Made by a program: the position numbers and the translations under genes. The notes under the pieces are model-generated. The model saw only the letters and a program-made list of their open reading frames with translations. It was not told the origin of the DNA and searched no databases. A DNA stretch of 25,882 nt from a virus (lineage: Duplodnaviria; Caudoviricetes), in IMG/VR virus record IMGVR_UViG_3300025078_000019, positions 1 through 25,882 of that record. One strand, given 5' to 3'. Shown here one piece after another: positions 5,686 to 25,882 of the stretch. Positions within the stretch are counted from its first letter, which is position 1, and each line of letters begins with the position of its first letter.

Positions 5686-7317
5686 TCAATATTCGTGATA
5701 GTTTTTAAAAAAACTTTCTGGAAAGAGATTTTTAGATTTACCCTTAAGTCTTCTCCAGTCATCATCTAATATGTATGTTACAGCTGTATCTTTTTCAGAT
5801 CTAATACTTCTTCCTACACTTTGTATTATAGTCCTTACAGTCTGTGTATCATACCACCAATTCCATTTAGACATTTTTTTCTTAGTTACTTTATCACCTA
5901 GATACGGGAAAGGTACCTTACATAAAATCTGGAATTTTGAAAGGTCTCCTTTTAAATCTACACCCTCTGACATAGAGGGCGATAATAAAACAGTCGGATT
6001 TTTTGAAGACATATGCTTTTTAAGCATCTTATCTCTATCATTACCATAAGCAATTAAAAGTCTGCTTTTATATTTGCGTTGCAACTTCTTATAAACACTC
6101 TCTGCTATTTTTATGCTATGTGTATGTATTATTCCTTTTTCGTTCTTGTGATTTTCAAGTATAGCATCAATTGATTTAATAATGTTCGGAAGTGTATTTT
6201 GCAAATTCTTATAAGACATACTTCCACACGAAGAAAATATTATGGGTCTATTATCTGTCGGGAATGGCGAGTCTTCTTTTATCGATACAGTTTTATCAAA
6301 AGGTAAACCTAATGTAAGACTAAATCCTTCATGCGAAATAATAGTTGCAGACATAAAAATAATATAGTCAGCATAGTCTAACAAATATTGAGTTGAATAA
6401 TGAGAAACGTCTATTGGCTTAAAAACAAATCTTTTACTGTTATGTTGTTTTTCTTCAATGTCAAATATCCAATTATCTCTATCATATAAACTAATAAACT
6501 GCAGTATTTTCTTTTCGTGTGCAGATAACATATCGAAGTTTTTTGTTATTTTTTGGAACTCTTCTAACTTATTAGAAGTTATACCAAACTTTGAAAGTTG
6601 TTTACTAATGAATTCACATTTAGACTTTACTGCTGGATAGTATATATCTTTAATCCATTTATAAGCTTTAAACTGTGTATTTAAATCGTTAGGAACCTTT
6701 AATTTCAATATTTTATCTGAAAAGTATGATGATATACTTATTTCTATGAATCTAGAAAACTCGTTTTCTAGATTATGCGCCTCATCAATTACTAACACTT
6801 TTTTGTTTGGAACTTTTTGACTATAATTCTTTTCAGTTAAAAAATAACTAAAGTTTGTTATACCTAACTCTTTTTCAATAAAGTCTTTCTTTTTCTTTTT
6901 ATACACACAATCATAACTACAATTATTGAATTTCTTAGGTAAACTATTAGCTCTTAACCCAGATTGTATTTCCTTACAAGAAGCTTTTTTATCATTCTTA
7001 CAACTATAGTTTGAGGAAGAATATAATGACACAAGGCCTGATGTTTTAGAAAAGTCTTTCTCATATTGATCTTGCAATATCTTCTGTGTTGTTAAAAAAT
7101 AAGCACCACTCTCAAATGTACCACTAAATTCTGAACTGTTGTTTATTGATCTTGCAATTGTCAGACCTATTGCAGATTTTCCAATCCCAGTACCACAGTC
7201 AACAATAGCATATTTCTTTCCATTTTTAAATTCTTTAAGAACTTTATTAATTACTCTTTCTTGCTGTTCTCGAGGTTTGTCATAAGGAAAATACTTATTC
7301 CAGTCATTATTATTCAA
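5686..7317 (-). CDS. DinG/XPD (Rad3)-family SF2 helicase with probable Fe-S cluster
   Basis: Q-motif PREQQ, GTGIGKS, four Cys after motif Ia, DEAH, MSAT, EGVDLKGD, KVPFP, QSVGRSIRS; TTG start. Confidence 0.92.
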   Translation of the reverse strand: MNNNDWNKYFPYDKPREQQERVINKVLKEFKNGKKYAIVDCGTGIGKSAIGLTIARSINNSSEFSGTFESGAYFLTTQKILQDQYEKDFSKTSGLVSLYSSSNYSCKNDKKASCKEIQSGLRANSLPKKFNNCSYDCVYKKKKKDFIEKELGITNFSYFLTEKNYSQKVPNKKVLVIDEAHNLENEFSRFIEISISSYFSDKILKLKVPNDLNTQFKAYKWIKDIYYPAVKSKCEFISKQLSKFGITSNKLEEFQKITKNFDMLSAHEKKILQFISLYDRDNWIFDIEEKQHNSKRFVFKPIDVSHYSTQYLLDYADYIIFMSATIISHEGFSLTLGLPFDKTVSIKEDSPFPTDNRPIIFSSCGSMSYKNLQNTLPNIIKSIDAILENHKNEKGIIHTHSIKIAESVYKKLQRKYKSRLLIAYGNDRDKMLKKHMSSKNPTVLLSPSMSEGVDLKGDLSKFQILCKVPFPYLGDKVTKKKMSKWNWWYDTQTVRTIIQSVGRSIRSEKDTAVTYILDDDWRRLKGKSKNLFPESFFKNYHEY

Positions 7318-8403: not shown

Positions 8404-8616
8404 ATGTCTTCAGAAAGAAAATATTTAAGAAACTTTGAAGAAGATATTCCTGACGAGCTTATTTGCCCTCTGTGTAATATAGACAATAAAGATTGTGAAT
8501 GTGTTAAATATAATTGCAAATGCAAAATTACTGCAACAAGCTGTATATGGCCTGATTGCATTTGCAGTAATTGTCTTCAAATGCAAGACAAATGTGTGTG
8601 TATAAATGAACAATAA
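8404..8616 (+). CDS. Cys-rich small protein (12 Cys; metallothionein/zinc-binding-like)
   Basis: CPLC, CEC, CKC, CIC, CVC motifs; AAAGG RBS; overlaps the cyclase start. Confidence 0.65.
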   Translation: MSSERKYLRNFEEDIPDELICPLCNIDNKDCECVKYNCKCKITATSCIWPDCICSNCLQMQDKCVCINEQ

Positions 8617-9475
8617 TTTTAAAGATGCTGCGGTAGAGAATTATATTGCAATAGTTCTTACAGATATTATAGGAAGTACTAGATTCGTACAAAGAAACGG
8701 CTCACATGTTGCTGCGCAGTGGTTTGGTATTCATGATAGATATGTAATGAGTTTTATTGCTAAACACAACGGACAGCTAGTAGATGCAAGTGATGGTCAC
8801 CTAATGTATTTTGGAACAGTCCAAGATGCTATAGCATTTGGCTTTGAATACAAAGCTTTCTTAAAAAAGAAAAAAATACCATTCCAAAGTAGAGTAGGAA
8901 TTCATTGGGATAAAATGCTTATTATCAAGTCTGAAGAGCATATGGTTAGAGCTGGTGGTAAGAGAATAAATCTTGAGGGAATAGGTAAAAACATTGCTGC
9001 TAGAACTATGAGCATTTGTGGCCCTAATCAAATATTGTTAAGTAAACCTGCTTATATTAAGTTTAAAGAAAGAACAAGTTCAAACAGGTTCATTCCAAAA
9101 AATGCAAAAATAGCACTTGCAGGACTATATCAATTCAAAGGTGTTAAAAAGCCAGAACAAATATTTATTATGGGTCTAGAAGAATCACACATACAACCCC
9201 CACAGAGCGGCGAAAAAGTTAAAAGACTTGGAGGCGCAAGAAAAATCAAAGTAAGTTTAAGAAATAAAACAATAAAAGAAGTATCATGGTGGATTTTTTA
9301 TAGGGTTTCAATAATTTTATCTATATACTTAGTTATTGGATTAATACACTCTTCAAATAGCTTTCATGCAAACAACCTGTTTTTCGTAATGACAGACATA
9401 GATTTAAACTATTATATTGGTTGGATATACACATTAATTTCATATTTATATGAAATATTAAAAGTTATGATATGA
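8606..9475 (+). CDS. Class III nucleotidyl (adenylate/guanylate-type) cyclase with C-terminal membrane segment(s)
   Basis: IVLTDIIGST (first Asp), SDGHLMYF (second Asp), RVGIH, NIAAR (N-x3-R), QILLS, YQFKGV; hydrophobic C-terminus. Confidence 0.9.
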   Translation: MNNNFKDAAVENYIAIVLTDIIGSTRFVQRNGSHVAAQWFGIHDRYVMSFIAKHNGQLVDASDGHLMYFGTVQDAIAFGFEYKAFLKKKKIPFQSRVGIHWDKMLIIKSEEHMVRAGGKRINLEGIGKNIAARTMSICGPNQILLSKPAYIKFKERTSSNRFIPKNAKIALAGLYQFKGVKKPEQIFIMGLEESHIQPPQSGEKVKRLGGARKIKVSLRNKTIKEVSWWIFYRVSIILSIYLVIGLIHSSNSFHANNLFFVMTDIDLNYYIGWIYTLISYLYEILKVMI

Positions 9476-12101: not shown

Positions 12102-12395
12102 TTATTTGTGCCACCAATCATCTAAAGAGCCAAAGATTATATTTTCGTAAAGACTGTCAGGTATACTTCCTACGCAATCGTAACTAAACCACTCACCTTC
12201 AAGGCGATATCTACCTAGTCTCTCGTGAACAATTTTTTCTTTCCACCCTTCTTTTTCAAAAGAAGCTATTAATTTAAGCTTATTAGGATTACCAGTTTGA
12301 AGCTGTTTTAATCTTTTTTGCGGATTTTTAGATCTACCTATTTTTATCATTCCAGTTACATCTGACTGAATTATGTATAAATCGTCATTATTCAT
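12102..12395 (-). CDS. T5orf172 / GIY-YIG-like nuclease family protein
   Basis: LYIIQ...IKIGRSKNPQKRLKQLQTGNP...EK.VH...GEWF; likely start MNNDD at 12395. Confidence 0.88.
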   Translation of the reverse strand: MNNDDLYIIQSDVTGMIKIGRSKNPQKRLKQLQTGNPNKLKLIASFEKEGWKEKIVHERLGRYRLEGEWFSYDCVGSIPDSLYENIIFGSLDDWWHK

Positions 12396-12440
12396 TTTAT
12401 CTCTCATAATTATACTTAAATATAAAACTAAAGGTATTAT

Positions 12441-13703
12441 ATGATTATTATAGCAGAAAACAAAAAAAACCATTATTTAATTAAAAAATTTTTAATAGAA
12501 ACAGGAATGGAAAAAGATAGTGCCAAAAGACACTTCGGGTTAGAGCCAGTCTCAAATATACCATCAGGTGACAATCCCGAGCAATACGTAAAATTAGGTC
12601 TAAAACCCATCAGTAGCCAAAACATCCATACTGATACAGAAGTGATTAAGCCTCACAATAGGAAATTTCAAGAGTTAGTTAAAAAAAATCAGAGGTACAG
12701 TAAGTTGACAGACCTTGCTAAAAAGGGCTTTTTAACTTTTGGAATGATCGTGACTCTTTTTAGCGCTATATCAAGCGAAAAGCATGCTACTGATAAAATA
12801 CACCCTTCATCTCAAAAAATAATTGAAGATGCTGTCGAAGAAGAAATGATTTCTAGAAATCCAGACAATGTTAAAGAGATTGAGTTCACTTTTGACGTCA
12901 TGCAACAAAACAATGTTGAACAACAAAATAATGTTGAAAGTGTAATTATAGATTACGAAAAAGCTATCCCTTTTGACGAAATAATAGACTTAATAATTAA
13001 ACATGAAAATTTTAGATCAACACCTTATCCAGACCATAAGCAATGGAGTATTGGATATGGTTCAAGAGTTTCAGATAAAAGTGGTAGTTTTATTAACAAA
13101 GCTAAACACAACAAACTTCGACCAAAGTATAATAAGCTTTATAGAAAATATCAAAGAACAGGAAGCAGATTAGATCTAGATAAACTTTTAAGATGGACAA
13201 ATAAAAGTTATGTTGGCAGTTGGTATAAAGATTTACATAATTTAAGTGGAAATACAAAAAAAGCTACTGTGACGCCTCTCACAATTGCGCAAGGAAAAGT
13301 AATGTTAGTTAAACATTTAAAAAATGAGCTATCAAGACTTCAAGCAAATGCTGACTTTAATATTAATGAAATGCCTACAAATATCCAGAAAGCTCTATCA
13401 GACATGGCTTATAATATGGGTGGTGCTTTTATTGTTAAGTTTAAAAAGTTTCATAAATGTTTAACATTAATAGACAAAATACAGAAAAAGAAAAACATTA
13501 CAAAAATAGATCAAGACGTATTAGAAGACTTATTTGTTGAAGCAAGTCAAGAAATACAAAGTTCTTTATACTTTAAAGAACTTCCTACAAGAGCTTCAAC
13601 AAATATAAAACTAGTACAGAATGCAATAGAAAACTTTAAAATTATTGACAAAAACTTTCAAAATGAATCACTTAGAAAAGTATATAAACACTTGTTTGTG
13701 TAG
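12441..13703 (+). CDS. Lysozyme (GH24/T4-lysozyme-like) with long N-terminal extension and a hydrophobic segment
   Basis: IIKHENFRSTPYPDHKQWSIGYG (catalytic E-x8-D) and LSDMAYNMG...KFKKF; hydrophobic GFLTFGMIVTLFSAIS; QQNNVE x2. Confidence 0.8.
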   Translation: MIIIAENKKNHYLIKKFLIETGMEKDSAKRHFGLEPVSNIPSGDNPEQYVKLGLKPISSQNIHTDTEVIKPHNRKFQELVKKNQRYSKLTDLAKKGFLTFGMIVTLFSAISSEKHATDKIHPSSQKIIEDAVEEEMISRNPDNVKEIEFTFDVMQQNNVEQQNNVESVIIDYEKAIPFDEIIDLIIKHENFRSTPYPDHKQWSIGYGSRVSDKSGSFINKAKHNKLRPKYNKLYRKYQRTGSRLDLDKLLRWTNKSYVGSWYKDLHNLSGNTKKATVTPLTIAQGKVMLVKHLKNELSRLQANADFNINEMPTNIQKALSDMAYNMGGAFIVKFKKFHKCLTLIDKIQKKKNITKIDQDVLEDLFVEASQEIQSSLYFKELPTRASTNIKLVQNAIENFKIIDKNFQNESLRKVYKHLFV

Positions 13704-13855: not shown

Positions 13856-15499
13856 CTAATTTTCTTCTGTTAACTTGATTAAATTGTCAATTTGACCTAG
13901 CGCGTAGTCTTTATTATACTTCTTAGTAGACATATTTGCTACTCCAAAAAAAGAAAGAACTTCTGTAGAGATGCCAATTTCAATACCTTTACTTGCCATT
14001 GCATGCTGGAGCTCAGAATAATGTTCAATATCATATACTTTACCTTCGAAAACAACTTCTCCTGCTTTAATTGTTTTTTTCATTTTTTTAAATAATTTAA
14101 TTGCGCTATCTTTTTCTAAATTTTTACTTTCTAAAAACACATGCAATGTCTCTATTCTTTCTTCAAGACTATGCAAATATTGATCCCAACGAGTAGACTC
14201 TATTTCTAATTTAAATTTACCGTCTTCTAAAGGACTAATTCCACCGCCGCCAATTAACATATTAACAAGCAAGGATGCATTTTTTATCATTTTACTTTTA
14301 CCCTCACTGTTTAAATCATCTAAATTGTTTATTTCTAAATCATATAATGCATTTGTTCTTTTTAATAAAAACTTTACAACATCTTTTAGACTAAATATTT
14401 TTTGATTTTTATCATTCATATCTTTAACAAAACCATAGTAAGCATCATTTGAATTTTGTCTAGCATCATCAATGTTCATACTTAAAGCATGCCCTAATTC
14501 ATGCATGATTATTTCTAACGTTGCCGAATCTGATAATAATATTAGACCTCCATGAGAACCAGGCTTTACTTCTGTTAACTCAATACTTACTCCTTTCAAA
14601 TCGGAATCTTTAATAGTTCTAGCTATTGCTTGATTAAAAAATTCTTTAAAAAAATAATAAGGATAAGTTAGCCCTACTTCTTTTTTGTTTTCTATTTTTT
14701 TAAATATTATATTTGATATTTTTTTCAATATGTTCTGTTTTAAGTCGGGAAGCTCTTTGTTGTCTTTTGTTACTTTTAGATTTTTTTCAAAAAATATTTT
14801 TGTAATTTGATTTGCATATTCTTTATACTTTTGTGGATCCATTTTACCAACATATAAGTCAAACTCGCTTGTTATATTGATTTTTTTAAGATCATTTGAT
14901 TTACTTTTGTTTATTTCTGTAATTGCATTATATATCTTTTCAGTTGCAGCTTCACTAGAGTCATGCCCTAGACAGTGAGCAGTCACTTTAGTATACATAC
15001 CTGGAAATAATTTTACTATATTCTTATCTTCTAAATCATTATATCCTTTTTCAAAAGCCTTTAAGAACATTTTGTTAATTTCTTGTTCGTTTTTACCACC
15101 AAAAACTTTATTTAAAATACCGCTTTCATCATTTAAATCATTAGGACTAAGTCCATCCATTCTAGTAAAAACTTCACAAGCTTTTTTATAATTTTCAAGG
15201 CTAACGTTAACACCTACACCTTCACCTCTGTCTGCAACTTGTTGATACGTAGGGACAGGTTGTTTATACGTATGGACAGGGGTATCCGCGTGTGCTGTGC
15301 CTGTTAGTGACATTCCTTTCATCAACAACAAAGGAAATATTATAGAATTTTTAATTCCTTTCTCTCTTAATCTCTTTAAAAAGTTTTCATTTATTAAATT
15401 GTTTTTCAATAAACTTACTTCAAGAAGACATACTTTTTCTTCTACTAATAAAAAATTATTCCATTCTTTTACTAATACCTTATACTCTTGTCTTTTCAT
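13856..15499 (-). CDS. Putative zincin metallopeptidase with N-terminal leader and internal signal-like peptide
   Basis: IIMHELGHAL (HExxH); leader MKRQEYKVLVKEWNNFLLVE. Confidence 0.6.
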   Translation of the reverse strand: MKRQEYKVLVKEWNNFLLVEEKVCLLEVSLLKNNLINENFLKRLREKGIKNSIIFPLLLMKGMSLTGTAHADTPVHTYKQPVPTYQQVADRGEGVGVNVSLENYKKACEVFTRMDGLSPNDLNDESGILNKVFGGKNEQEINKMFLKAFEKGYNDLEDKNIVKLFPGMYTKVTAHCLGHDSSEAATEKIYNAITEINKSKSNDLKKINITSEFDLYVGKMDPQKYKEYANQITKIFFEKNLKVTKDNKELPDLKQNILKKISNIIFKKIENKKEVGLTYPYYFFKEFFNQAIARTIKDSDLKGVSIELTEVKPGSHGGLILLSDSATLEIIMHELGHALSMNIDDARQNSNDAYYGFVKDMNDKNQKIFSLKDVVKFLLKRTNALYDLEINNLDDLNSEGKSKMIKNASLLVNMLIGGGGISPLEDGKFKLEIESTRWDQYLHSLEERIETLHVFLESKNLEKDSAIKLFKKMKKTIKAGEVVFEGKVYDIEHYSELQHAMASKGIEIGISTEVLSFFGVANMSTKKYNKDYALGQIDNLIKLTEEN

Positions 15500-15525
15500 T
15501 TATTTAATCCTTGAATTCTAAGCTA

Positions 15526-15571
15526 ATATATTAATCATTTTCTAAATAATTTAATATATCATCACAATTTT
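15526..15571. repeat. 46-bp exact direct repeat, copy 1 (copy 2 at 16243-16288)
   Basis: ATATATTAATCATTTTCTAAATAATTTAATATATCATCACAATTTT at both positions. Confidence 0.95.
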
Positions 15572-15713
15572 AATAACTAGCTTAAGCCTTTTTATAGAAA
15601 ATTCTATAAACTTTACGTATGATACAAAACCGTCAGAAGACATCTTAACAAATGACTTAGTTGTCAAGTCTAACTTGGTTTACGAATGGTGATTAGTCGA
15701 TAGTGTGATGACT

Positions 15714-16217
15714 TTAGTCAATATAAAATTTAAAGTCTTTATATAATTCCATTTCACCTTTAAGATACTTAAAATATTCAGCATCTTTTTCGCCTATTAC
15801 ACTAAAATCATCTAAGTTTTCATGGGCATCCTCTATTATTGCTAAATGTCTTTCAATACTTTTGATTATACTTAGTTTTATTTTACTCGGGTTTTTATCA
15901 CCTTTTAACTGCTTCAACAGGTCTTTAGCAGCTTTTATTGTCTCTTTTAATTCTGCTTTGTTCCAATTATGTCTAGTCATAGTTTCTACAGTTTTTTCAG
16001 CAGCAGCTGGGTTATCCATAGAATTTGTATTAATATCAAGTTTATTGCATGCAGCAGCCATGCTAAACAGAGAAACAGCAATTGCACCTTTTAAACCTAA
16101 CCTTCCATATTCTTCAGCAAAGTCTTGCATAAAACCTTCACTAATTGTTTTTTTATCCAGACTTTTTAATAACTCTTCTCTTATAATTGCTCTTAGCTGA
16201 CTTTCTTTTATTAACAT
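15714..16217 (-). CDS. Leader-bearing hypothetical protein with internal lipobox-like motif
   Basis: MLIKESQLRAIIREE leader; LKGAIAVSLFSMAAAC; GAGG RBS. Confidence 0.75.
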   Translation of the reverse strand: MLIKESQLRAIIREELLKSLDKKTISEGFMQDFAEEYGRLGLKGAIAVSLFSMAAACNKLDINTNSMDNPAAAEKTVETMTRHNWNKAELKETIKAAKDLLKQLKGDKNPSKIKLSIIKSIERHLAIIEDAHENLDDFSVIGEKDAEYFKYLKGEMELYKDFKFYID

Positions 16218-16242
16218 AATTTACCTCATTTATAATATTAAT

Positions 16243-16288
16243 ATATATTAATCATTTTCTAAATAATTTAATATATCATCACAATTTT
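16243..16288. repeat. 46-bp exact direct repeat, copy 2 (3' end of the lipoprotein gene)
   Basis: Identical to 15526-15571. Confidence 0.95.
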
Positions 16289-16493
16289 TTAACTGCTTTA
16301 TTCTTTCTATTGACGCGTCACCACAATTAGAAATATGCTCAAATGCGCCACGATGTAATCCCATACAATCAGTTACTACATTCAAAATCTGCTCACACTC
16401 AGACTTTGACGCATCAATCTTCTTATACGTTCTACTACAAGAAACTGCAGATGCAACAAAAAATACAACACATATCATTATTTTCTTAAACAT
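16248..16493 (-). CDS. Small Cys-rich lipoprotein
   Basis: MFKK + hydrophobic stretch + AVSC lipobox; C-x9-C-x13-C-x13-C. Confidence 0.7.
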   Translation of the reverse strand: MFKKIMICVVFFVASAVSCSRTYKKIDASKSECEQILNVVTDCMGLHRGAFEHISNCGDASIERIKQLKNCDDILNYLEND

Positions 16494-16528
16494 TGTAAAC
16501 TCACTAAAACTCTTATAATATAAATATT

Positions 16529-16672
16529 ATGCATTACTCAATAACACAAACACAATTAACTTGTATAAACATTCTTATTAGATCTCTCCAAGAAGCTATC
16601 AATAGAAACTGTTTCGACGATGATGAAATGACAAGAATACATAAAACTATAGACAAACTAAATAATGTTTAA
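16529..16672 (+). CDS. Small hypothetical protein (47 aa), below the ORF-track cutoff
   Basis: MHYSITQTQLTCINILIRSLQEAINRNCFDDDEMTRIHKTIDKLNNV*; fills the gap between two genes; TATAAATA at 16519-16526. Confidence 0.55.
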   Translation: MHYSITQTQLTCINILIRSLQEAINRNCFDDDEMTRIHKTIDKLNNV

Positions 16673-16676
16673 AACA

Positions 16677-17513
16677 TCACAGCGTTATGCTCAAAAGGTT
16701 ATAACCTAAATCTTTTTCTAAATCTTTGATATAATTTAAAATTTCTGGCTCCTCTTTATAAAAGGCATACATTAAAACACTATCAACTTCACTCCAGTCA
16801 TTTGACAACTCTTCGCCTGAATTTATCATATTTTCTAATGAACCATACTGATACATTTTATTAGAACCTAACGGTCTATACATTAATGGCAAATCATCAT
16901 TATCCTTGTCAATCATTCCTTCTAGATTGTCTTTCCCATCTATACCATCACCTACCATATCACTTATTGTTAAATCATTAAAACTCATTTTTACGCTATT
17001 CAAATTAAACTCAGAATCAGCTCTTCTTGCATACCTTTCCCATACCTTTTTAGCGTCATCAGATACACTCATCCTGTCACTCATTAACGCTCCATTAAAA
17101 CGACAACTTATAATCTCTAACCCAATCTCATACAACAAAGGCCCAAACCCACCCGCAACCTCAGATTTCTTCACTTGATAAGATTCTCTACTATTACCTC
17201 TATTATCATTAACAAAAACATCTTTGTCAATAAGTCTATATCTTCCAGACTCATCTTTTATTTTATTAAAATATACAAAATTTGTTCTACCCAAATTATC
17301 AGAACCATAATTTAAAATCTGGACTCGTAACATTTTCGTATCATGCTCGAAAACGTCAACACTTAATTTAATATCTTTACCTGTCTCTTCTCTTAACATT
17401 TTTATTCTGTCAACTAAAGACTTAATCTTATTAATCCCACTAATATCAACTGGCGACTCGTTTAAATACTTATTCCAACTCTCAACGAGAATATTCCACT
17501 CTTTACGATTCAT
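16677..17513 (-). CDS. Leader-bearing GNAT-like acetyltransferase-fold protein
   Basis: GGFGPLLYEIGLE...LMSDRMSVSDDAKKVWERY resembles GNAT motifs A/B; leader MNRKEWNILVESWNKYLNE. Confidence 0.55.
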   Translation of the reverse strand: MNRKEWNILVESWNKYLNESPVDISGINKIKSLVDRIKMLREETGKDIKLSVDVFEHDTKMLRVQILNYGSDNLGRTNFVYFNKIKDESGRYRLIDKDVFVNDNRGNSRESYQVKKSEVAGGFGPLLYEIGLEIISCRFNGALMSDRMSVSDDAKKVWERYARRADSEFNLNSVKMSFNDLTISDMVGDGIDGKDNLEGMIDKDNDDLPLMYRPLGSNKMYQYGSLENMINSGEELSNDWSEVDSVLMYAFYKEEPEILNYIKDLEKDLGYNLLSITL

Positions 17514-17541
17514 AATTTTACTCGCTTTTTAGAATCTAAAT

Positions 17542-18528
17542 CTATATAATATCAAAATCTAATATAACAATATCACTTGGACTAGGATTGTCAACAATCT
17601 TTACTCCAAAGTTATCGTCATGCATATCACTTGTACTAATATAACCAAAAGCAGCTGATAATCTTTTAAAATCTTCATAAAACATTACATCTTCTATATC
17701 TTTAACATTTGCAAAATTACTAGCAGCATCATGAAACATCACATTACTTATTTTTGGCAATATTTTATCTAATTTACCAGAATTATCAAAATTACTAGTA
17801 ACTTTTTTTAATTTGTCACTAGCAACTTCTTTACCTTGTCTTTCTGGAGAATTCCTGTTAAACATCAACATCTCTCTATACTTTTCTTCATCATCTTTAC
17901 GATATGTATTTCTCCTCATTTCCGGAAGTCTTGTCATATAAACACACATCATTATAGTACTAACTACAAACTCTTTAAAACTCTTTGATGAACTCTTTGC
18001 TCTATTTTTGTCACCATGATCTAACACGTTCCAAAATGTAGGAAAAACGTTCTTCAATATTGTTATATCTTCAATGTCACTCAAAGGTCTAACTTTTTCA
18101 CAAATATACCAATAAGGCTTTTCATTGACTCTATCATACCCAAAAACTTTAATAAATATATCTGCAGCTGCACCACTATGCGCCTTAGTCAAACACATGT
18201 TTATCTCTTTCTCATTAGTTTCAGCTCCCATAGGGTTCATTGCTATTTTTAAAACCCACGGCTTCCCACTTATAGAAAATCCACTTCTAAAAGCACCCGA
18301 ATTTAAAAGCTCAATCCTCGGCTTATTACTATATGCAACATTCTCTAACTCCCCATAAATATAATGAGGCAAATCTTCTATACCCCCACTATAATCATCA
18401 CTTTCTAAATGAATTCTTAAATCCCTACTTACTTTATCTAACTTCTCACCAATAATGTCTGTTTCAGACCCATCACTAGAATTCATAATTTCTAACAAGA
18501 AATCTTTTATATACACTTCTAATAACAT
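17542..18528 (-). CDS. Leader-bearing protein-kinase-like protein
   Basis: SGAFR (Gly-loop), VLKIA (Lys), NEKE (helix C Glu), DMHDDN (catalytic loop), IVILDF. Confidence 0.75.
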   Translation of the reverse strand: MLLEVYIKDFLLEIMNSSDGSETDIIGEKLDKVSRDLRIHLESDDYSGGIEDLPHYIYGELENVAYSNKPRIELLNSGAFRSGFSISGKPWVLKIAMNPMGAETNEKEINMCLTKAHSGAAADIFIKVFGYDRVNEKPYWYICEKVRPLSDIEDITILKNVFPTFWNVLDHGDKNRAKSSSKSFKEFVVSTIMMCVYMTRLPEMRRNTYRKDDEEKYREMLMFNRNSPERQGKEVASDKLKKVTSNFDNSGKLDKILPKISNVMFHDAASNFANVKDIEDVMFYEDFKRLSAAFGYISTSDMHDDNFGVKIVDNPSPSDIVILDFDII

Positions 18529-18587
18529 ACGTTAACTCTCGTTTAATTCTATATTATAACTCTATATATTTAATCAAACCACAAATT

Positions 18588-21098
18588 CTAACTTAACAGG
18601 AGTATTATGATTAATAAAAATATAACCCAAAGAAAATTAGATTTATTGCTTTTACTTGATTGATTACAAGAAGAAACTGCTACACCACTTTCCTGTCTGT
18701 CTTCTTGAGAACCATTTGCGCCAATATTCTCCTCTAATAAATTGTTTCCTCCACTTTCTCTACCACCAACACTTTCTTCAACAATACTTCCGCCTACTAC
18801 TTCTTCAAACACACTTCTAACACATTGCTGTCCTTGCTCATTTGCAACGCACTCTTGACCAGCAGGACAACTAATAGAATCACATCCACTCCATATACAC
18901 TCGCCTCTTTTACATATCATCCCTTCACCACACTCAATACCTCCACAAATATCTTCTACACACTCACCTGTAATACACACAAGGTCATTAGGACACTCGA
19001 TACCACCACAAAGATCTTCTATACATAAACCATCAACACAACTAGTAAACAATGGACAACTTATCTGTGCGCAAGAAGGAATACACTGCCCACCCCTACA
19101 GAAATCACCTGCTTCACAATTAATACCACTACAAGCATCTGGAATACACTCTACACCATCACAAATACCCCCAGTTTCACATCCTGTATATACACAGCTA
19201 TTAGGTACACACGCTCCCTCCCAACATCTATTACCACTACTTTCACATTCAACACCTTCACAAAGATCAACACACATTAAACTTTGCTCTTCACAAACTT
19301 CACCTCTAACACACTCTACCCCAACACACGGCGGTAAACAGATATTACGCCTCCGATCACATCGATGATCAGCTAAAAAACACTCATCTCTACACACTTC
19401 TCGACATTCTCCTTCAAAACACGCACTATTTTCTCCACAAAGATCACCTTCATCTACAATACCATCACAATCGTTATCTATACCCTCACATCTCTCAATA
19501 GCACTCTCACCACAAAGACCACATGCATTTGCAAACCCCTCATCAATAATCCCATCACAATCATTGTCTATAATATCACATATCTCAATATCTGGCGCAC
19601 GATTCGGCACACATATAACTTCACCATTAATACAACTTTCAATTCCTCTAGCACAAATCCCACCCTGACCAGTTGCGCATAACTGATTCGCTGTACCTCC
19701 ATCTACATAAGCTTCGTCTGTAATTGCATCACAATCATTATCTATACCATCACAAACATCTTCCATTCCATCTGGTACACAGATTAAATCGTCACAAAGA
19801 TCACCTATTTGATCTCCATCATCATCGATCTGATCAGGGTTAGGGACATCAATGCAATTATCACAGGCATCACCCACACCATCCATGTCGAGGTCAGCTT
19901 GATCAGGATTAGCTACTAGAGGACAGTTGTCTTCGGTCGCACAAAGCCCATCTTCATCTTCGTCGAGTAAACAGACACCTCCAAGAGATCTCAAAAGAAT
20001 AAGCAGCGCATAAGAAGTTGCTTGTACACCGTTATGTCCACCCCAACACGAGATATTACCAGCACACCATTTTCCGTTACCACTTTGGTCTTCTGTCAGG
20101 AAGTAAGCATAATCAAAATACCAACGTGCTGACTCTTCTGGAAAACCTACTGAGGCAGGATCTAATGTACCACCAATTTGATCTGAGTAAAGGGCACCCG
20201 CTTGATTACCTATAGAGACTTCAAACGCTTTGGCACTCGCCCACATGTAATAGTAGTAGCTACTATCAGATCCGCCGCGACCTTGATTATTATAGGTATA
20301 ATTAGATTGAAGCCAACTAAGAGCCGACTGAACATTCCCGTCTTCTACCGGTGTACCAGAGAGTAGATAGGTCCATGCACCTGAAGCGCTCATAGCATGA
20401 TCATTATTGCTAGGACTTGAATAACCATGCGACCCATTACCGGATTTAGTACTATTGATAAAACCAAGTGCATTAGGCAGGGTATTATTTGAACCGGGGA
20501 TTACGGTTTCTGCGGCATGTAAGCCCGCCATTGCGAACTGTGTTGTCGACATATCAGCTCGAGGGCTACCTACGTTATATCCAAAACCGCCGCCCGACGC
20601 ATTTTGCAAGGCCTTGAGGTTGTTGACGGCATTTTGAATACCTTGTGTAACGGTTACCCCTGCTCCAACATTATCTGGACCTCCTGTATGTTTATATGTA
20701 CTCATCGCCATTAAACAAGCACCGGTATCATAAGCTTCGGCATTACCATTTTCAATTCCACCGATCGACTGAATACAGTAGCGTATACCGTTACGCACAA
20801 CCTCTTGATCGGCGGGATTCATATTTTGGTAACCTTGAGGTTGAGCATTCCAGTCTGCGCTCGCTCTTTTTTCTAAAAAGCAGAGCACTGCTAAACCGGT
20901 TGGACGTCCCCAACCCCCATTCCCATCTTGATTAGCACGTAACCAACTAATCCCACGATCGATAGATTCATTTACTCTCTCACCAAAAGGAGTAACCAAC
21001 GCTGCCGCTTCAAAAGTAAAAACACCTAAAAAAAAGCTTAAAAAACAAACGAAAGAAACAAGCTTCTTATTAATACTCCTCTTATATTCTCTAAACAT
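18588..21098 (-). CDS. Large secreted/surface protein: alpha/alpha-barrel (prenyltransferase/QW-repeat-like) domain, thrombospondin type-3 repeats, CDGxDNDCDG repeats, Cys-rich repeats, C-terminal membrane anchor
   Basis: Signal peptide ending AAA; [22 protein letters not shown]; [17 protein letters not shown]; three [16 protein letters not shown] repeats; SSC...[13 protein letters not shown] tail. Confidence 0.85.
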
Positions 21099-21308
21099 CT
21101 TACAATAACTCCTGTAGAATCTTTATTATATCTTTACATATTATATCAAGTATGATTAAAAGATTAACTACAAGTTAAAACAAACGTCATGACTCAAGAG
21201 ACGCCCAGCTCGACCAAAATTAATTAAATTTATCGTTTATTACTTTATGCTTTTATTATAAACATAATCTACGTATTTAGTAAAACATCAAAAAAAATTT
21301 TATTCTTC

Positions 21309-21356
21309 CAACTTCCACTTCACCTCGCCATAATCACTTTCCCACACTATTCCCAC
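21309..21356. repeat. 48-bp imperfect copy (43/48) of 22079-22126, near the 3' end of the lipoprotein gene
   Basis: CAACTTCCACTTCACCTC..CA.AATCACT.TCCCAC.CTATTCCCAC at both sites. Confidence 0.9.
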
Positions 21357-21398
21357 GTAATTATACCCAAATGATCAAAACTCACACTACCCCAATAA

Positions 21399-21977
21399 TC
21401 ACCGAACAGAATCTCCTGGTTTACCTGATAAATTGGCTAACGACACATGGAATCTCCTTTGCGGATTCTCTTTCTTCCACAAATTCTCGGGACCTCCAAC
21501 TAATTTCATCACTTTGTTTAAGTACTCTTCAACATCTTTATGATTATCTACCCATGCAACATAAGATATCCTTCCCGTTTCGAGATCTTCTCTTTTTTCC
21601 CAAGTGTCATTCAATTTAATAGACGGCGGCACAATTTCATTACCCTCATCATCTTTTAATTCCGGTACACCATTCTTCGGAAAAAGTGTTTTAAGCGCCT
21701 TTTTGAAAGGTTTTAAAACACTTTGATGAGCTAAAGTAACATGAAGATTTTCTTCCGGTAACAAAATCACAGGCTTCTTAGATACTTCTGTTTCTTTAGG
21801 AAAATCTTCTTGTCCGGTAATATCTCGCGCTTGTTCAATAATCCCGATCGAGTTTATTTTTAAAATTCCAGAAAATTTGACCTTGACCGAGCCGCCAGTT
21901 TGCTCTTCACCCCCACTGCCAGATGAAATTCCCCCTTCTGTTAATATTTCTTGTATGTATTCTCTTAATAGTCTCAT
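21399..21977 (-). CDS. Leader-bearing 2H phosphoesterase
   Basis: Two H-x-T/S motifs, LHVTL and FHVSL; leader MRLLREYIQEILTE then a Gly/Ser linker; GAGGAG RBS. Confidence 0.8.
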   Translation of the reverse strand: MRLLREYIQEILTEGGISSGSGGEEQTGGSVKVKFSGILKINSIGIIEQARDITGQEDFPKETEVSKKPVILLPEENLHVTLAHQSVLKPFKKALKTLFPKNGVPELKDDEGNEIVPPSIKLNDTWEKREDLETGRISYVAWVDNHKDVEEYLNKVMKLVGGPENLWKKENPQRRFHVSLANLSGKPGDSVR

Positions 21978-22048
21978 TTTAACACTCCTCTACTCTTTGT
22001 TCATTATCTATATATTAAACAAAATCTCGAAAAACGTCTTAACACTCA

Positions 22049-22300
22049 TCAACTTCCATCTCCTAACCTACCCAGCCTCAACTTCCACTTCACCTCTTCA
22101 CAATCACTCTCCCACGCTATTCCCACATCCACATCATCACACCCTCCCCACTCTTCAACTCCAATACCCGTACAAGCGCGCACCCTCACTTTTATCGCAT
22201 CACACACCTTCTTCTCACCCAAATTATCAAATCTCTCCCCACCCCAATAATCACCACAACTCAACAAAAAAAATATCAAAAAATAAGCAATTCGACTCAC
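22049..22300 (-). CDS. Small Cys-rich lipoprotein, related to 16248..16493
   Basis: GTG start at 22300 with AAGGGG RBS; SRIAYFLIFFLLSC lipobox; C-x9-C-x10-C-x12-C. Confidence 0.65.
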   Translation of the reverse strand: MSRIAYFLIFFLLSCGDYWGGERFDNLGEKKVCDAIKVRVRACTGIGVEEWGGCDDVDVGIAWESDCEEVKWKLRLGRLGDGS

Positions 22301-22424
22301 AATAAATACCCCTTCAAATAAATCAAATCTACCTATTAACTCAACACCCAAAGATACACCTAAATTCTAAAAAGTTTTCCAATTTTTCTCCCGAAGTTTT
22401 TTTCACAAATTACACAAATTACTT

Positions 22425-22477
22425 CCGCACAAATATAACATATTTTTTTATATTTGTGCGGTCAAGTGTATTATGTT
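22425..22477 (-). promoter_or_regulatory. Hairpin/operator module overlapping a sigma70-like TTGACC box (near-copies at ~23593-23641 and ~25855-25882, the last cut by the window end)
   Basis: Perfect 14-bp inverted repeat CCGCACAAATATAA (22425-22438) / TTATATTTGTGCGG (22448-22461); minus strand TTGACC-N17-TATGTT. Confidence 0.55.
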
Positions 22478-22525
22478 ACGTCTGTGCCTTGAGAGACACC
22501 CAACTCGAGTTAAATCCCACAATAA

Positions 22526-22840
22526 TCAAAAATTAGATCTTCCATCTCTCTCTATTGCAGCATTAATAACAGGCCTAAGCTCCTCCAAATATGCTTCCCT
22601 AGTAATCTCACCTCTCTTAAAGGCTTCTTGCGCACGAATTGCATCGTCATAGCCATCAACCCTATCAGTCTCAAAGCTATGTATCATCAACATCTCCTCT
22701 AACTCTTCTAAACGCACATTACTAACTTCAACTTCACCATACGCCCCATATCCCGTATACTCATCAGACTCGTCGTACGGTAGGTTTTCACTTATTACTC
22801 TTCTTATTACTCTTCTTAATATACTTTCAGTTATTCTCAT
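22526..22840 (-). CDS. MRITES-leader acidic hypothetical protein
   Basis: MRITESILRRVIRRVISE; GAGGA RBS. Confidence 0.8.
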   Translation of the reverse strand: MRITESILRRVIRRVISENLPYDESDEYTGYGAYGEVEVSNVRLEELEEMLMIHSFETDRVDGYDDAIRAQEAFKRGEITREAYLEELRPVINAAIERDGRSNF

Positions 22841-22949
22841 ATTAAATCCTCGTTAAATTATGTTCATAATCTATATATTCAATTAAATCACAAAATAAAA
22901 CTTAACATACATAAACGTCATGACACTAGAGACACCCAGCTCGAGAACT

Positions 22950-23471
22950 CTAGTTTTTATATTTAGCTTTCTTTTTACCATCTTTTGAATACTGTATTTC
23001 GTCGTTCCATCTCCAACTTTCTGCTCCAGATGAAGGACCAAGAACTTTTGTATTAATTAGTTCTTTATCTAATAATACTTCAAAAAGCTTAAGATATAGT
23101 CTTTCAATAAAAAATTCATAATTGTTTTCACTACTAGACTTATTTTTAATTATAGATTTAAGCCACTTAATAGCATTATATTTACCATTTGTATTCTTTT
23201 TAAAATCATTGTTTTTTGCAAACTGGAAGTACTCGTTACAAACTCTTTCAGCCTTCAATCTTTTAACTATACCCGTTCTAGCTTCAATATATTCAGGATA
23301 ATCTTTCGCATGCTTAGCAATATCATTTTTGCCAACTTCACCAATTTTCTTAACAGCTTTTTTAAAGCTTTCTTTCGCACTACTTAAAATCGACTCGTTC
23401 AAATTAATCGATTCATTTTCTGCAATCACACTTCTTATTATTCTTCTTAGTCTACTCTCAGTTATACGCAT
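22950..23471 (-). CDS. MRITES-leader basic hypothetical protein
   Basis: MRITESRLRRIIRSVIAENESINLNE. Confidence 0.8.
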   Translation of the reverse strand: MRITESRLRRIIRSVIAENESINLNESILSSAKESFKKAVKKIGEVGKNDIAKHAKDYPEYIEARTGIVKRLKAERVCNEYFQFAKNNDFKKNTNGKYNAIKWLKSIIKNKSSSENNYEFFIERLYLKLFEVLLDKELINTKVLGPSSGAESWRWNDEIQYSKDGKKKAKYKN

Positions 23472-23689
23472 TCTTAAGTCTCTCTTTTTTCACATATTAT
23501 ATAAATCTATTTATCTCTGAAATGGTAAAAGTTATCCAAAATTTCTCCCGAAGTTTTTTTCGAAAATTCGGTGTATTCAGATGTGTGCTTCACACAAATA
23601 TAATATATTTTTTATATTTGTGCGGTCAAGTGTATTATGTTACGTCTGTGACCCAAGAGACACCCAGCTCAATCAACATTGTTACTACT

Positions 23690-23908
23690 TTATCTATTGG
23701 TACCAAATACATCTTTATTATATAGTTTTTTAAATAAATCTGCACCTTCATAACAAGCTTGATCTAGATCATCTTCGTGATATTTAAGCATTCTAGTCCA
23801 CATCACTTCATTAGGACAACTACCACTGTAACTTAATAAGTCATCTCTAACAATCAACACCCCTAATACATAATCAATATGGATCACGATGTCTTCTATA
23901 CGCATCAT
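23690..23908 (-). CDS. Hypothetical protein (overlaps the upstream gene by 35 nt; start uncertain)
   Basis: 72-aa ORF filling the space up to element B. Confidence 0.45.
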   Translation of the reverse strand: MMRIEDIVIHIDYVLGVLIVRDDLLSYSGSCPNEVMWTRMLKYHEDDLDQACYEGADLFKKLYNKDVFGTNR

Positions 23909-24161
23909 TTATAATTTCATCAGCAAATTTCGCCAAGCCAGCATTTAAACACATTTTTTTATAGTCGATCTCCAAAACTTCAGCATTCTCACTAGTCTGT
24001 TCATTATAGATTCTATTTGCAATCCTGTTAATTAAACTCTCAACTTCATAACCATGTTCTTCTTTTAACTCAGTATAACTCGTTATATGATCATATTTTC
24101 TCGATACCTCTGCCAATATTTGTCTTATCACTCGCCTTAATCTACTCTCAGCTATTCTCAT
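23874..24161 (-). CDS. MRITES-type leader hypothetical protein
   Basis: MRIAESRLRRVIRQILAE. Confidence 0.78.
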   Translation of the reverse strand: MRIAESRLRRVIRQILAEVSRKYDHITSYTELKEEHGYEVESLINRIANRIYNEQTSENAEVLEIDYKKMCLNAGLAKFADEIINDAYRRHRDPY

Positions 24162-24326
24162 ACTTAAAATTCTTTCTATTAATATCTCTAAATATAACTC
24201 TAATTATCAAAAAGTTTTCGAAAATTTCTCGCGAAGTTTTTTTCACTAAAACTGAAAATACTATTTAAAATAAGTGCCGCAAACTTTCATACGTCGTGAC
24301 GCAAGAGATACCCAGCTCGACAAAGA

Positions 24327-25016
24327 TTATCTAGTATATTCGTACCAAGGAAGCTCTTCATCTTTTCTTTTTTGCTCAGCTTTTTTCCTGCGCTTTAAAT
24401 AATCAGCTTGCTGTTTTTCGTTATACCTTCTTATATTACCAGCCTCTTTTCTATCAAATATCTTATGATTATGAGGATTTTGTTCAATTACAAAATAATT
24501 ACTCGTGTCAACCGTTGAATGATTGCCTGGCTTTTCATATATTAAACAAGATAACAACTTATCATTTCCAGATTTTATCACACCAACAATCGCCATCTCT
24601 CCAGATTTCATTTGTTTTAATGCTTTTTTGTCTTTAGCACCAAAATTAACTTTTAACTTTCCATTTTCTATTAGCAAACCAACAGTCGCTGTAAACATTA
24701 AATTAAGTCTTGACATCTCATCAGCATCTGCAGCAGGTACGCTTGATATGTTAGAAAGAATAGATGTTAACTCGCCCTCAGAAATTCCTCTATCTTGAAA
24801 TTTAGTTAAATTATATACAACACTATCGTTACTATTTATATCAACATGAGAAATACCAAAGTCGCTTAGACATTCATATGAAATCTTTGATAAACTTCTT
24901 TTTTTAATTTTTTCTGTTGCTTCCACCCAATCAGAATACCAACTATGTGATCCACCATCACTTTCTTTTATTACTTGACGAATTATCTTTCTTAGCTTGC
25001 TCTCAGTTATTCTCAT
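24327..25016 (-). CDS. MRITES-leader hypothetical protein
   Basis: MRITESKLRKIIRQVIKE; AAGG RBS. Confidence 0.82.
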   Translation of the reverse strand: MRITESKLRKIIRQVIKESDGGSHSWYSDWVEATEKIKKRSLSKISYECLSDFGISHVDINSNDSVVYNLTKFQDRGISEGELTSILSNISSVPAADADEMSRLNLMFTATVGLLIENGKLKVNFGAKDKKALKQMKSGEMAIVGVIKSGNDKLLSCLIYEKPGNHSTVDTSNYFVIEQNPHNHKIFDRKEAGNIRRYNEKQQADYLKRRKKAEQKRKDEELPWYEYTR

Positions 25017-25185
25017 ATTTAAAACCTTACTTTGAAAATATTATATAATTCTATTTATCACTTAAAATGTCAAAAGTTTTCGAAAATTTCTCCCGAAGTT
25101 TTTTGACCAAAACTGAAATATTACTTTTTATAAAAAGCGCCGCAAACGTCTTTTACGTCTGTGACTCAAGAGACACACAGCTCGA

Positions 25186-25692
25186 CTAAAAACCTATCGC
25201 TTTTATAGCTTTCTTGTTAGACATTTTCTCAAATGCACGAAATACCAAACTGTACTTCTTTTTCAGATCAGGACTTTTCTCAAATAGTGCCAAAACTTCT
25301 TTCATTATTTCATCACCAGCTTCACCCATTTTTTCGAACTTTTCAATATAATCTGATAGTATATTCTGCCCACCAAAAGGATTTGCTCTAAGCTTTTTTA
25401 CTAACTCGTCTTGCTCTTTTTGCAAATTTCCTACTCCTTCAATTTCTAAATCAGCTTTACTTTCTTTGCTCTGAGTCTGACTAATAGTATCATTCATTTG
25501 ACTTATAAAACCTTTGGCATTTGCTGTACCACTTAACGCTAACATCACTAATCCTATCGCAGCACCTTTACTAACTTTACCAGACAAATCTTGCAAAACA
25601 CCTTCAACTATCAATGACTCGTTTAAAATGTTATTACTCTTCATCAACTCTTCACTTATTATTCTTCTCAATCTACTCTCAGTTATACGCAT
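25186..25692 (-). CDS. MRITES-leader protein with internal signal-peptide-like segment
   Basis: MRITESRLRRIISEE...LIVE then KVSKGAAIGLVMLALSGTANA. Confidence 0.82.
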   Translation of the reverse strand: MRITESRLRRIISEELMKSNNILNESLIVEGVLQDLSGKVSKGAAIGLVMLALSGTANAKGFISQMNDTISQTQSKESKADLEIEGVGNLQKEQDELVKKLRANPFGGQNILSDYIEKFEKMGEAGDEIMKEVLALFEKSPDLKKKYSLVFRAFEKMSNKKAIKAIGF

Positions 25693-25882
25693 CTTTCAAT
25701 CTCTCTTTCTTGTATTATAAATATATATCAAAAAGTTATCCAAAAACTCTCCCGAAATTTTTTTGACAAAATCGATAATTTCTCTTTCTCAACTGAAAAA
25801 CTATTTGGTACACAATTCTCACTTTACACACGATATATCCAGATGTGTTCTTTCACACAAATATATTATATTTTTTTATATT

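Follow-up and report, generated by a model that had tools for sequence, protein, structure and literature searches.

We find that three proteins of an uncultured phage carry, directly behind a short N-terminal leader, a second stretch that reads as a bacterial export signal. They are encoded on the minus strand of the IMG/VR record IMGVR_UViG_3300025078_000019, which has 25,882 bases in full, and the window analyzed here covers all of it. The genes lie at 13856-15499 (547 amino acids), 15714-16217 (167 amino acids) and 25186-25692 (168 amino acids). We propose from the sequences that such proteins may follow a two-step route, being packaged into the head and trimmed there and then exported by the Sec system of the next host. 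We put the probability of this reading at roughly 40%.

In this route, the leader would load the precursor into the prohead, and a T4-type head protease would cut it at the I/L-x-E motif beside the signal. The trimmed protein would be ejected along with the DNA, and the Sec system of the new host would export it for processing by signal peptidase. A fuller version, which we hold more tentatively, takes leader and signal as a two-part label. The leader would load the protein and an exact trim would expose the signal, so that the host's Sec, signal peptidase and Lol systems place the protein in the periplasm or outer membrane within seconds, before any expression, while an extra helix would shield the signal as long as the protein is still in the producer.

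Eight minus-strand proteins between 13.8 and 25.7 kb begin with one of two leaders according to profile searches. The class A leader follows the pattern MRITESxLRRIIR..I-x-E and the class B leader the pattern M-N/K-R-K-E-Y-x-L-L-V-E-x-W-N-x-F/Y-L. Across the proteins the leaders end in I/L-x-E, for example IAE, ISE, LAE, IKE or LNE. Class A heads the genes at 22526, 22950, 23874, 24327, 25186 and 15714, the last in its MLIKESQLRAIIREEL form, and class B heads those at 13856 and 16677. Two more minus-strand proteins, at 21399 and 17542, are leader-like by eye only.

The 547-residue protein reads LINE, then NFLKRLREKGIKNSIIFPLLLMKGMSLTGTAHA, then DT. Its residues 1-38 (15386..15499, profile score 34.2) are a long class B leader composed of a core helix with the Trp motif and a second helix ending in LINE, and AlphaFold2 predicts a helix at residues 3-32 in a weak model with a predicted local distance difference test (pLDDT) of 63.6. 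The signal-like stretch at residues 39-71 (15287..15385) has a basic part (+4), the core IIFPLLLM, a Gly at -5 and the end AHA before D. The body (13856..15286) contains an HELGH motif and two cysteines in the homolog alignment.

The 168-residue protein reads LIVE, then GVLQDLSGKVSKGAAIGLVMLALSGTANA, then KG. Residues 1-30 (25603..25692, profile score 31.7) consist of the class A core MRITESRLRRII and a spacer ending in LIVE. Residues 31-59 (25516..25602) are signal-like, with a basic part, the core GAAIGLVMLAL, a Gly at -5 and the end ANA before K. The body, residues 60-168 (25186..25515), is helical, and the AlphaFold2 model of the protein is weak (pLDDT 54.7).

The 167-residue protein reads TISE, then GFMQDFAEEYGRLGLKGAIAVSLFSMAAA, then C. 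Its leader, residues 1-27 (16137..16217, profile score 31.2), is made of MLIKESQLRAIIREEL and a spacer ending in ISE, and the homolog alignment defines a lipoprotein-type signal at residues 28-56 plus Cys57 (16047..16136), followed by the body (15714..16046). A lipobox is [LVI][ASTVI][GAS]C after a hydrophobic core, and the end A-A-A-C here fits a relaxed rule only. Strict lipoboxes occur among relatives, as LSGC in P0008, a member of the 168-residue family, and as LAAC in a leader protein of locus L022.

All three proteins thus show a basic or near-neutral stretch after the last I/L-x-E, then a core, and then small-x-small or Cys. A signal rule applied by hand asks for a hydrophobic core of some 7-15 residues behind a basic n-region, with positions -3 and -1 small, and the stretches show this pattern, which is typical of signal peptidase I substrates of the Sec pathway. 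The cores span 8-13 residues, and none of the three proteins reaches a Kyte-Doolittle value of 1.6 over 19 residues, so we rejected a membrane-spanning helix, a signal anchor or a signal-arrest-release type. The signals start at residues 28-39 of the precursor and not at its N-terminus. Hence, each would become N-terminal only after the junction cut.

The same gene cluster contains plain N-terminal signals without any leader, so the leader followed by a signal is a distinct design. One belongs to an 81-residue lipoprotein (16248-16493, minus strand) with homologs in loci L001 and L005. The other belongs to an 836-residue protein (18588-21098, minus strand) that also has Cys-rich repeats and a C-terminal membrane anchor.

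Homologs of the three window families were drawn from a collection of 5.8 billion proteins. The sequence-only reading had pointed to signal-peptide-like residues after the last (I/L)-x-E of the three leader proteins, which are present exactly as quoted, and had asked whether their A-x-A or lipobox residues are conserved, which the homologs bear out. The layout is kept in 12/12 members of the 168-residue family (ANA in 10, ASA in 1, LSGC in 1), with Glu30 and Gly31 invariant, and in 10/10 members of the 167-residue family (AAAC in 7, SSAC in 1, ANA without Cys in 2). It is also kept in all 13 aligned members of the 547-residue family (AHA in 9, AFS in 3, AYG in 1), an alignment from which a near-duplicate and an N-terminally cut sequence were omitted out of 14 collection matches.

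In the 547-residue family, Ala at -3 is invariant, -1 is always small, and either -5 or -6 is Gly or Pro; the linker behind the site varies. More broadly, Gly or Pro is found at -4 to -6 in the 168-, 547- and 295-residue families, the last being a further leader family described below. Variation in the three family alignments is confined to the end of the signal and the start of the body. In two families, those of 168 and 167 residues, the end switches between A-x-A and a lipobox, as is to be expected only where the sites are recognized by signal peptidases I and II. Because the cleavage grammar is kept while the sequences drift and the end types switch, the three stretches behave, as far as alignments can tell, as real export signals.

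The layout recurs beyond the window. Among the leader-protein families in the sampled loci, 10/52 have a leader and then a signal. The further members are the 295-residue family in L001 and L005, a 290-residue protein in L014, and proteins in L015, L009, L026, L022 (the strict LAAC) and L054, with a weak case in L027. A 331-residue protein (L039, that is G003:150000-162000, at 6294-7289) begins with a class A leader, behind which come a very basic stretch and a hydrophobic core that ends in V-Q-A. Its gene lies in the head module of G003, a complete contig of 184 kb, a few genes past the protease, and its neighbors include other small leader-bearing proteins.

A profile of the 547-residue family searched against 1.84 billion representatives gave 22 matches. 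Full-length relatives account for five, of which two are distant. In another eight the similarity stops after the first 60-130 residues, namely leader and signal, and a different body comes next. The remainder are fragments, six of them short and three covering the body only. No leaderless full-length form is among the 22. The bodies behind the leader and signal module fall into four unrelated groups, and textbook-like signals with varied A-x-A ends follow a near-invariant L-L-N-E junction. In a scripted check of 13 of the matches, a hydrophobic core follows the junction in 13/13, and the charge from junction to core is +3 to +5 in 12 of them and +1 in the other.

The two-helix class B leader also precedes signals on other protein bodies. 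By eye, in a subset of the 19 class B proteins, signal-bearing members have this second helix ahead of the junction, and signal-less ones lack it.

The junction itself is more regular than expected. An [ILMV]-x-E motif ends 4-17 residues ahead of the core in 13/13 signal-bearing leader proteins, which represent nine independent families with the L014 protein counted in the 295-residue family, or ten if it is split off. In 55 core-less leader proteins the motif stands at 421/1265 comparable positions, a background of 0.33 that puts the chance for nine families at about 5e-5. This excess implies that a protease-type site is kept where a cut would make the internal signal N-terminal.

The leader is probably a capsid-loading tag that is trimmed by the head protease, because it stands on unrelated families, co-occurs with a gp21-type protease and has leader-like proteins flanking that protease. 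PF03420 (T4 gp21-type, Peptidase_S77) scores over its cut-off in 5/5 large leader-bearing contigs and in 0/14 control genomes. In the head modules, the small proteins adjoining the protease have leader-like helices ending in I/L-x-E, and head-module proteins co-occur with the leader as the protease does. In T4, gp21 cleaves after L/I-X-E and the capsid targeting sequence (CTS) brings unrelated proteins into the head (PMC9026906).

A degenerate DNA pattern for class A, run against IMG/VR, hit 25 stretches that gave 27 distinct open reading frames (ORFs), one probably by chance, on contigs of up to 242 kb. Profile scans of all fetched loci then count 72 unique proteins with a leader, which is of class A in 53 and of class B in 19. 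Their bodies form 52 families, 42 of which have no signal at all, and one body is an AAA_33 P-loop kinase. A 20-residue leader query returned no match in tblastn, and the leader profile matches the two nearest cultured phages only weakly (E values of 0.04 and 0.0016).

Leaders vary at synonymous sites, with 5 synonymous and 2 non-synonymous codon changes against a 90% identical relative. Thus, the leader is translated and selection acts on the peptide, and a nucleotide-level element was rejected on the grounds of the synonymous variation. A twin-arginine (Tat) signal was considered for its Arg-Arg and rejected, as no hydrophobic core follows in the leader-only proteins.

Several observations weigh against the two-step route. 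Internal and N-terminally extended signals are normally Sec-competent, with the long autotransporter signals as one example (PMC2805444), and a producing cell should therefore be able to export the uncut precursor. Conservation of the basic part and core equals or exceeds that of the bodies, which is unusual for plain signals: the values are 0.75 versus 0.67 in the 547-residue family, 0.92 (the highest in the protein) versus 0.84 in the 168-residue family and 0.79 versus 0.56 in the 167-residue family. Such conservation may point to an added role, for instance pairing with the leader helix or membrane insertion.

Further weight on that side comes from the signals themselves, since the 547-residue family has a Lys within its hydrophobic stretch and the 167-residue protein has a net charge of -1 between junction and core. 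A permissive rule-based detector is only modestly enriched, flagging 14/65 leader proteins versus 37/335 other ORFs (odds ratio 2.2, p=0.026), the control set being contaminated with wrong-frame ORFs and further leader proteins. Moreover, head genes and the head protease are absent within the 25.9-kb window, so that the link to them goes via relatives.

The chief rival to the two-step route, in our view a possible though somewhat unlikely one, is that Sec takes the uncut precursor already in the producing cell. The leader would then stay cytoplasmic as a passenger or modulator, and signal peptidase I or II would free the body into the periplasm. Signal anchors and extended signals do function away from the extreme N-terminus (PMC2805444), the signals here are canonical, the two invariant cysteines of the 547-residue family suit a periplasmic protein, and masking by the leader is so far hypothetical. 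What producer-cell export leaves unexplained is the protease-type motif at all 13 junctions, the selection on leader and junction in every homolog and the plain N-terminal signals of the neighbors; by analogy, the propeptide and hydrophobic helix of SPN3US gp47 do reach virions. The gp47 precedent also lends itself to a quite unlikely alternative, in which the stretch is a membrane-insertion element for ejection, packaged and trimmed in a gp47-like manner with neither Sec nor a signal peptidase cut. That the basic part and core are unusually well conserved would suit it, as would the 331-residue protein that joins a leader to a hydrophobic stretch inside the G003 head module. However, the cores are short for it and stay below the hydrophobicity threshold, and a conserved A-x-A grammar with A-x-A/lipobox switches would be pointless without signal peptidases.

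Translation from internal starts, which the sequence-only reading had raised, would make these ordinary secreted proteins and the leader-bearing form minor or unused. It fails for the 547-residue family and for the L026, L014 and L015 proteins, where none of ATG, GTG and TTG occurs from the leader up to the core, so that the full-length protein is their sole product. A leaderless isoform, neither conserved nor general, is possible in 15714-16217 (Met30), in 25186-25692 (a TTG at Leu33, shared with L001) and, through Met33, in the L022 protein, where a start-capable codon lies 3-4 nucleotides past GAAGG. There the GAAGG arises automatically from Glu-Gly codons at a spacing shorter than at true starts, Met30 is replaced by Leu in 3/10 homologs, and leaders are under purifying selection, so we regard internal starts as very unlikely to account for the layout. 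We give little credence to a head-assembly tether, a pure inference in which the signal would hold the protein in the inner membrane while its cytoplasmic leader becomes part of the prohead core, and the junction cut would help to free the prohead. The motif at the junction and the one such protein in a head module agree with it, and proheads of T4 and SPN3US form on the inner membrane and need the protease for release (PMC9026906, PMC10052503); but many unrelated, fast-changing bodies at a hypervariable location are unlike an assembly factor, and the protease works within the closed prohead. Ordinary buried helices with no targeting role, of which the control ORFs flagged by the detector are a reminder, are barely credible given the conserved grammar, end switching, basic flank and constant junction position in at least 10 families.

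T4 head cargo is known to act in the cytoplasm, and we know of no T4 internal protein with an export signal, nor did literature searches turn one up. The leader described here bears no evident resemblance to the T4 tag, as judged without an alignment. The T4 CTS on IPI-III and Alt, which gp21 cuts (PMC9026906), is similar in being a short shared N-terminal leader with an L/I-x-E end on unrelated, fast-evolving proteins, and a gp21-type protease in the lineage and cargo genes in a variable cluster are common to both. The differences are that the leaders here have 18-38 residues versus 10 and come in two classes, and that packaging and cutting are predictions for the proteins here.

The protein gp47 of Salmonella giant phage SPN3US is the closest precedent, for the first step of the two-step route. 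The head protease cleaves gp47 at ALE-111, and the protein is present in virions. A predicted membrane helix then forms the N-terminus of the mature protein, and the authors speculate that it contacts the host membrane (PMC5694885). The likeness, a comparison of layout only, is a propeptide cut after x-x-E that leaves a hydrophobic helix N-terminal. Unlike the proteins here, gp47 has a predicted full membrane helix and not a cleavable signal with A-x-A or a lipobox, and it is a single protein and not a reusable module.

The extended signal peptide region of autotransporters and two-partner systems is similar in having a conserved extension before a Sec signal and about 50-70 residues in total (PMC2805444). 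The leader here differs in heading 42/52 signal-less families too, in its protease-type end and in its occurrence in phages with a gp21-type protease, and no autotransporter passenger or barrel domain was found by Pfam. An extension of the autotransporter type was rejected because the same leader heads the families without a signal.

The ejection proteins of T7 (gp14-16) and P22 (gp7, gp16 and gp20) enter the host envelope via the tail, without Sec or signal peptidase. They resemble the proteins proposed here in being carried by the virion and acting in the envelope of the newly infected cell, and differ in that neither a CTS-type leader nor an A-x-A or lipobox end is known from them. Searches of open-access papers and bioRxiv found no account of a capsid tag with a Sec or lipoprotein signal behind it.

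As to what the signals may carry, H333, E334 and H337 of the HELGH motif and the cysteines C108 and C176 are invariant in the 547-residue family. Together they suggest from residue conservation that its body is a zinc peptidase acting outside the cytoplasm. No Pfam, PHROGs or NCBIfam family covers any of the three bodies. For the 547-residue body, the best PDB sequence-profile hit has an E value of 0.86 and Foldseek finds no match to the model in PDB at E<=0.001, and for the 168-residue body ESM Atlas gives no usable match. Roles in superinfection exclusion or as an ejection conduit, suggested at the outset, gain nothing from these family, fold and structure searches and remain guesses.

Judged from gene content, the window is a piece of the large genome of a T4-related marine phage that is uncultured, because its relatives have a T4-type head module and baseplate and tail-fiber genes and its helicase points the same way. 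Megablast finds no near match to the window among cultured phages. The G+C content is 26-35%, that is A+T-rich, except for one gene. The left half contains helicase and tail-fiber-like genes and a PhoH-like ORF named by eye, and the helicase is about 30% identical to those of large-genome phages.

A 49.7-kb IMG/VR contig, of 20% CheckV completeness, has genes 90% identical to those of the window as well as baseplate and tail-fiber genes. A 95-kb contig, G006, encodes one protein that is 87% identical to the window protein 24327-25016, and its T4-type head module comprises the terminase, portal, gp21-type protease, a scaffold-like protein and the major capsid protein. The G006 protease shares 59% identity with its counterpart in Microcystis phage Mel-JY01, 47% with the one in Flavobacterium phage immuto and about 40% with those of cyanophages.

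The other leader proteins of the window have no signal. Four are of class A by profile (22526-22840, 22950-23471, 23874-24161 and 24327-25016, all on the minus strand), each with its own A+T-rich upstream region. One is a 278-residue class B protein (16677-17513, minus strand, profile score 42.3) whose leader ends in YLNE and which has homologs in L001, L005 and L013. Signal-less leader cargo in L005 (2051-2785 and 4113-4445) comprises the AAA_33 P-loop kinase and a Cys-rich 110-residue protein. The leader-like ORF at 21399-21977 encodes 192 residues with two H-x-T/S-x motifs, which we take to recall 2H phosphoesterases, with no family match in support.

About 40-55 nucleotides upstream of four class A leader genes lies the motif TTTTSGAWAACTTTT, with minus-strand copies at 23527-23541, 24210-24224, 25072-25086 and 25731-25745 and the palindrome TTTTCGAAAA within two of its copies. 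Allowing up to 2 mismatches, it has 7 matches versus 1.6 expected, and 0/100 shuffles reach 7. It may be a shared promoter or operator. The late-promoter motif TATATAG is not significantly enriched (13 matches versus 7.6 expected; 3/100 shuffles reached 13).

The 167-residue gene looks like an inserted cassette, because the lipoprotein and 547-residue genes adjoin in L001 and L005, where the latter comes directly after the former. A perfect 46-nucleotide direct repeat (15526-15571 and 16243-16288, 717 nucleotides apart) flanks this gene plus its upstream region, and one copy spans the 3' end of the 81-residue lipoprotein gene. Elsewhere, a 100-residue ORF at 22049-22351 (minus strand) is homologous to an 81-residue lipoprotein of L001 and L005, and its true start is probably downstream of the listed TTG.

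The gene for the 836-residue protein has 41-45% G+C versus 26-35% in its surroundings and looks recently acquired, and the protein weakly matches thrombospondin type 3 and MopE-like Cys-rich repeats. In a lysozyme-domain protein at 12441-13703 on the plus strand (PF00959, E 2.4e-5), a long N-terminal region that opens with an I-A-E motif leads up to hydrophobic residues around 95-112, which may be another internal signal or anchor. Its start overlaps an opposite-strand GIY-YIG/T5orf172 nuclease-like gene (12102-12473, minus strand). The plus-strand ORF 8606-9475 has a nucleotide-cyclase-type domain (TIGR04510, E 8e-30, under its cut-off; no Pfam family at 0.01) and a hydrophobic C-terminal part.

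The leader and export-signal layout would be a variation on T4-type head cargo, with the capsid tag before an export signal as its new part. Even with export from the producing cell, these signals lie 30-45 residues inside the protein, where standard annotation overlooks them, and at least four unrelated bodies have been joined to a single conserved module some 70 residues long. If the two-step route is true, it would be a new viral means of placing pre-made proteins in the periplasm or outer membrane at infection and a natural modular tag to load secreted proteins into phage particles. It would also widen the T4-type head cargo from cytoplasmic to envelope effectors, one candidate of which bears a zinc-peptidase motif.

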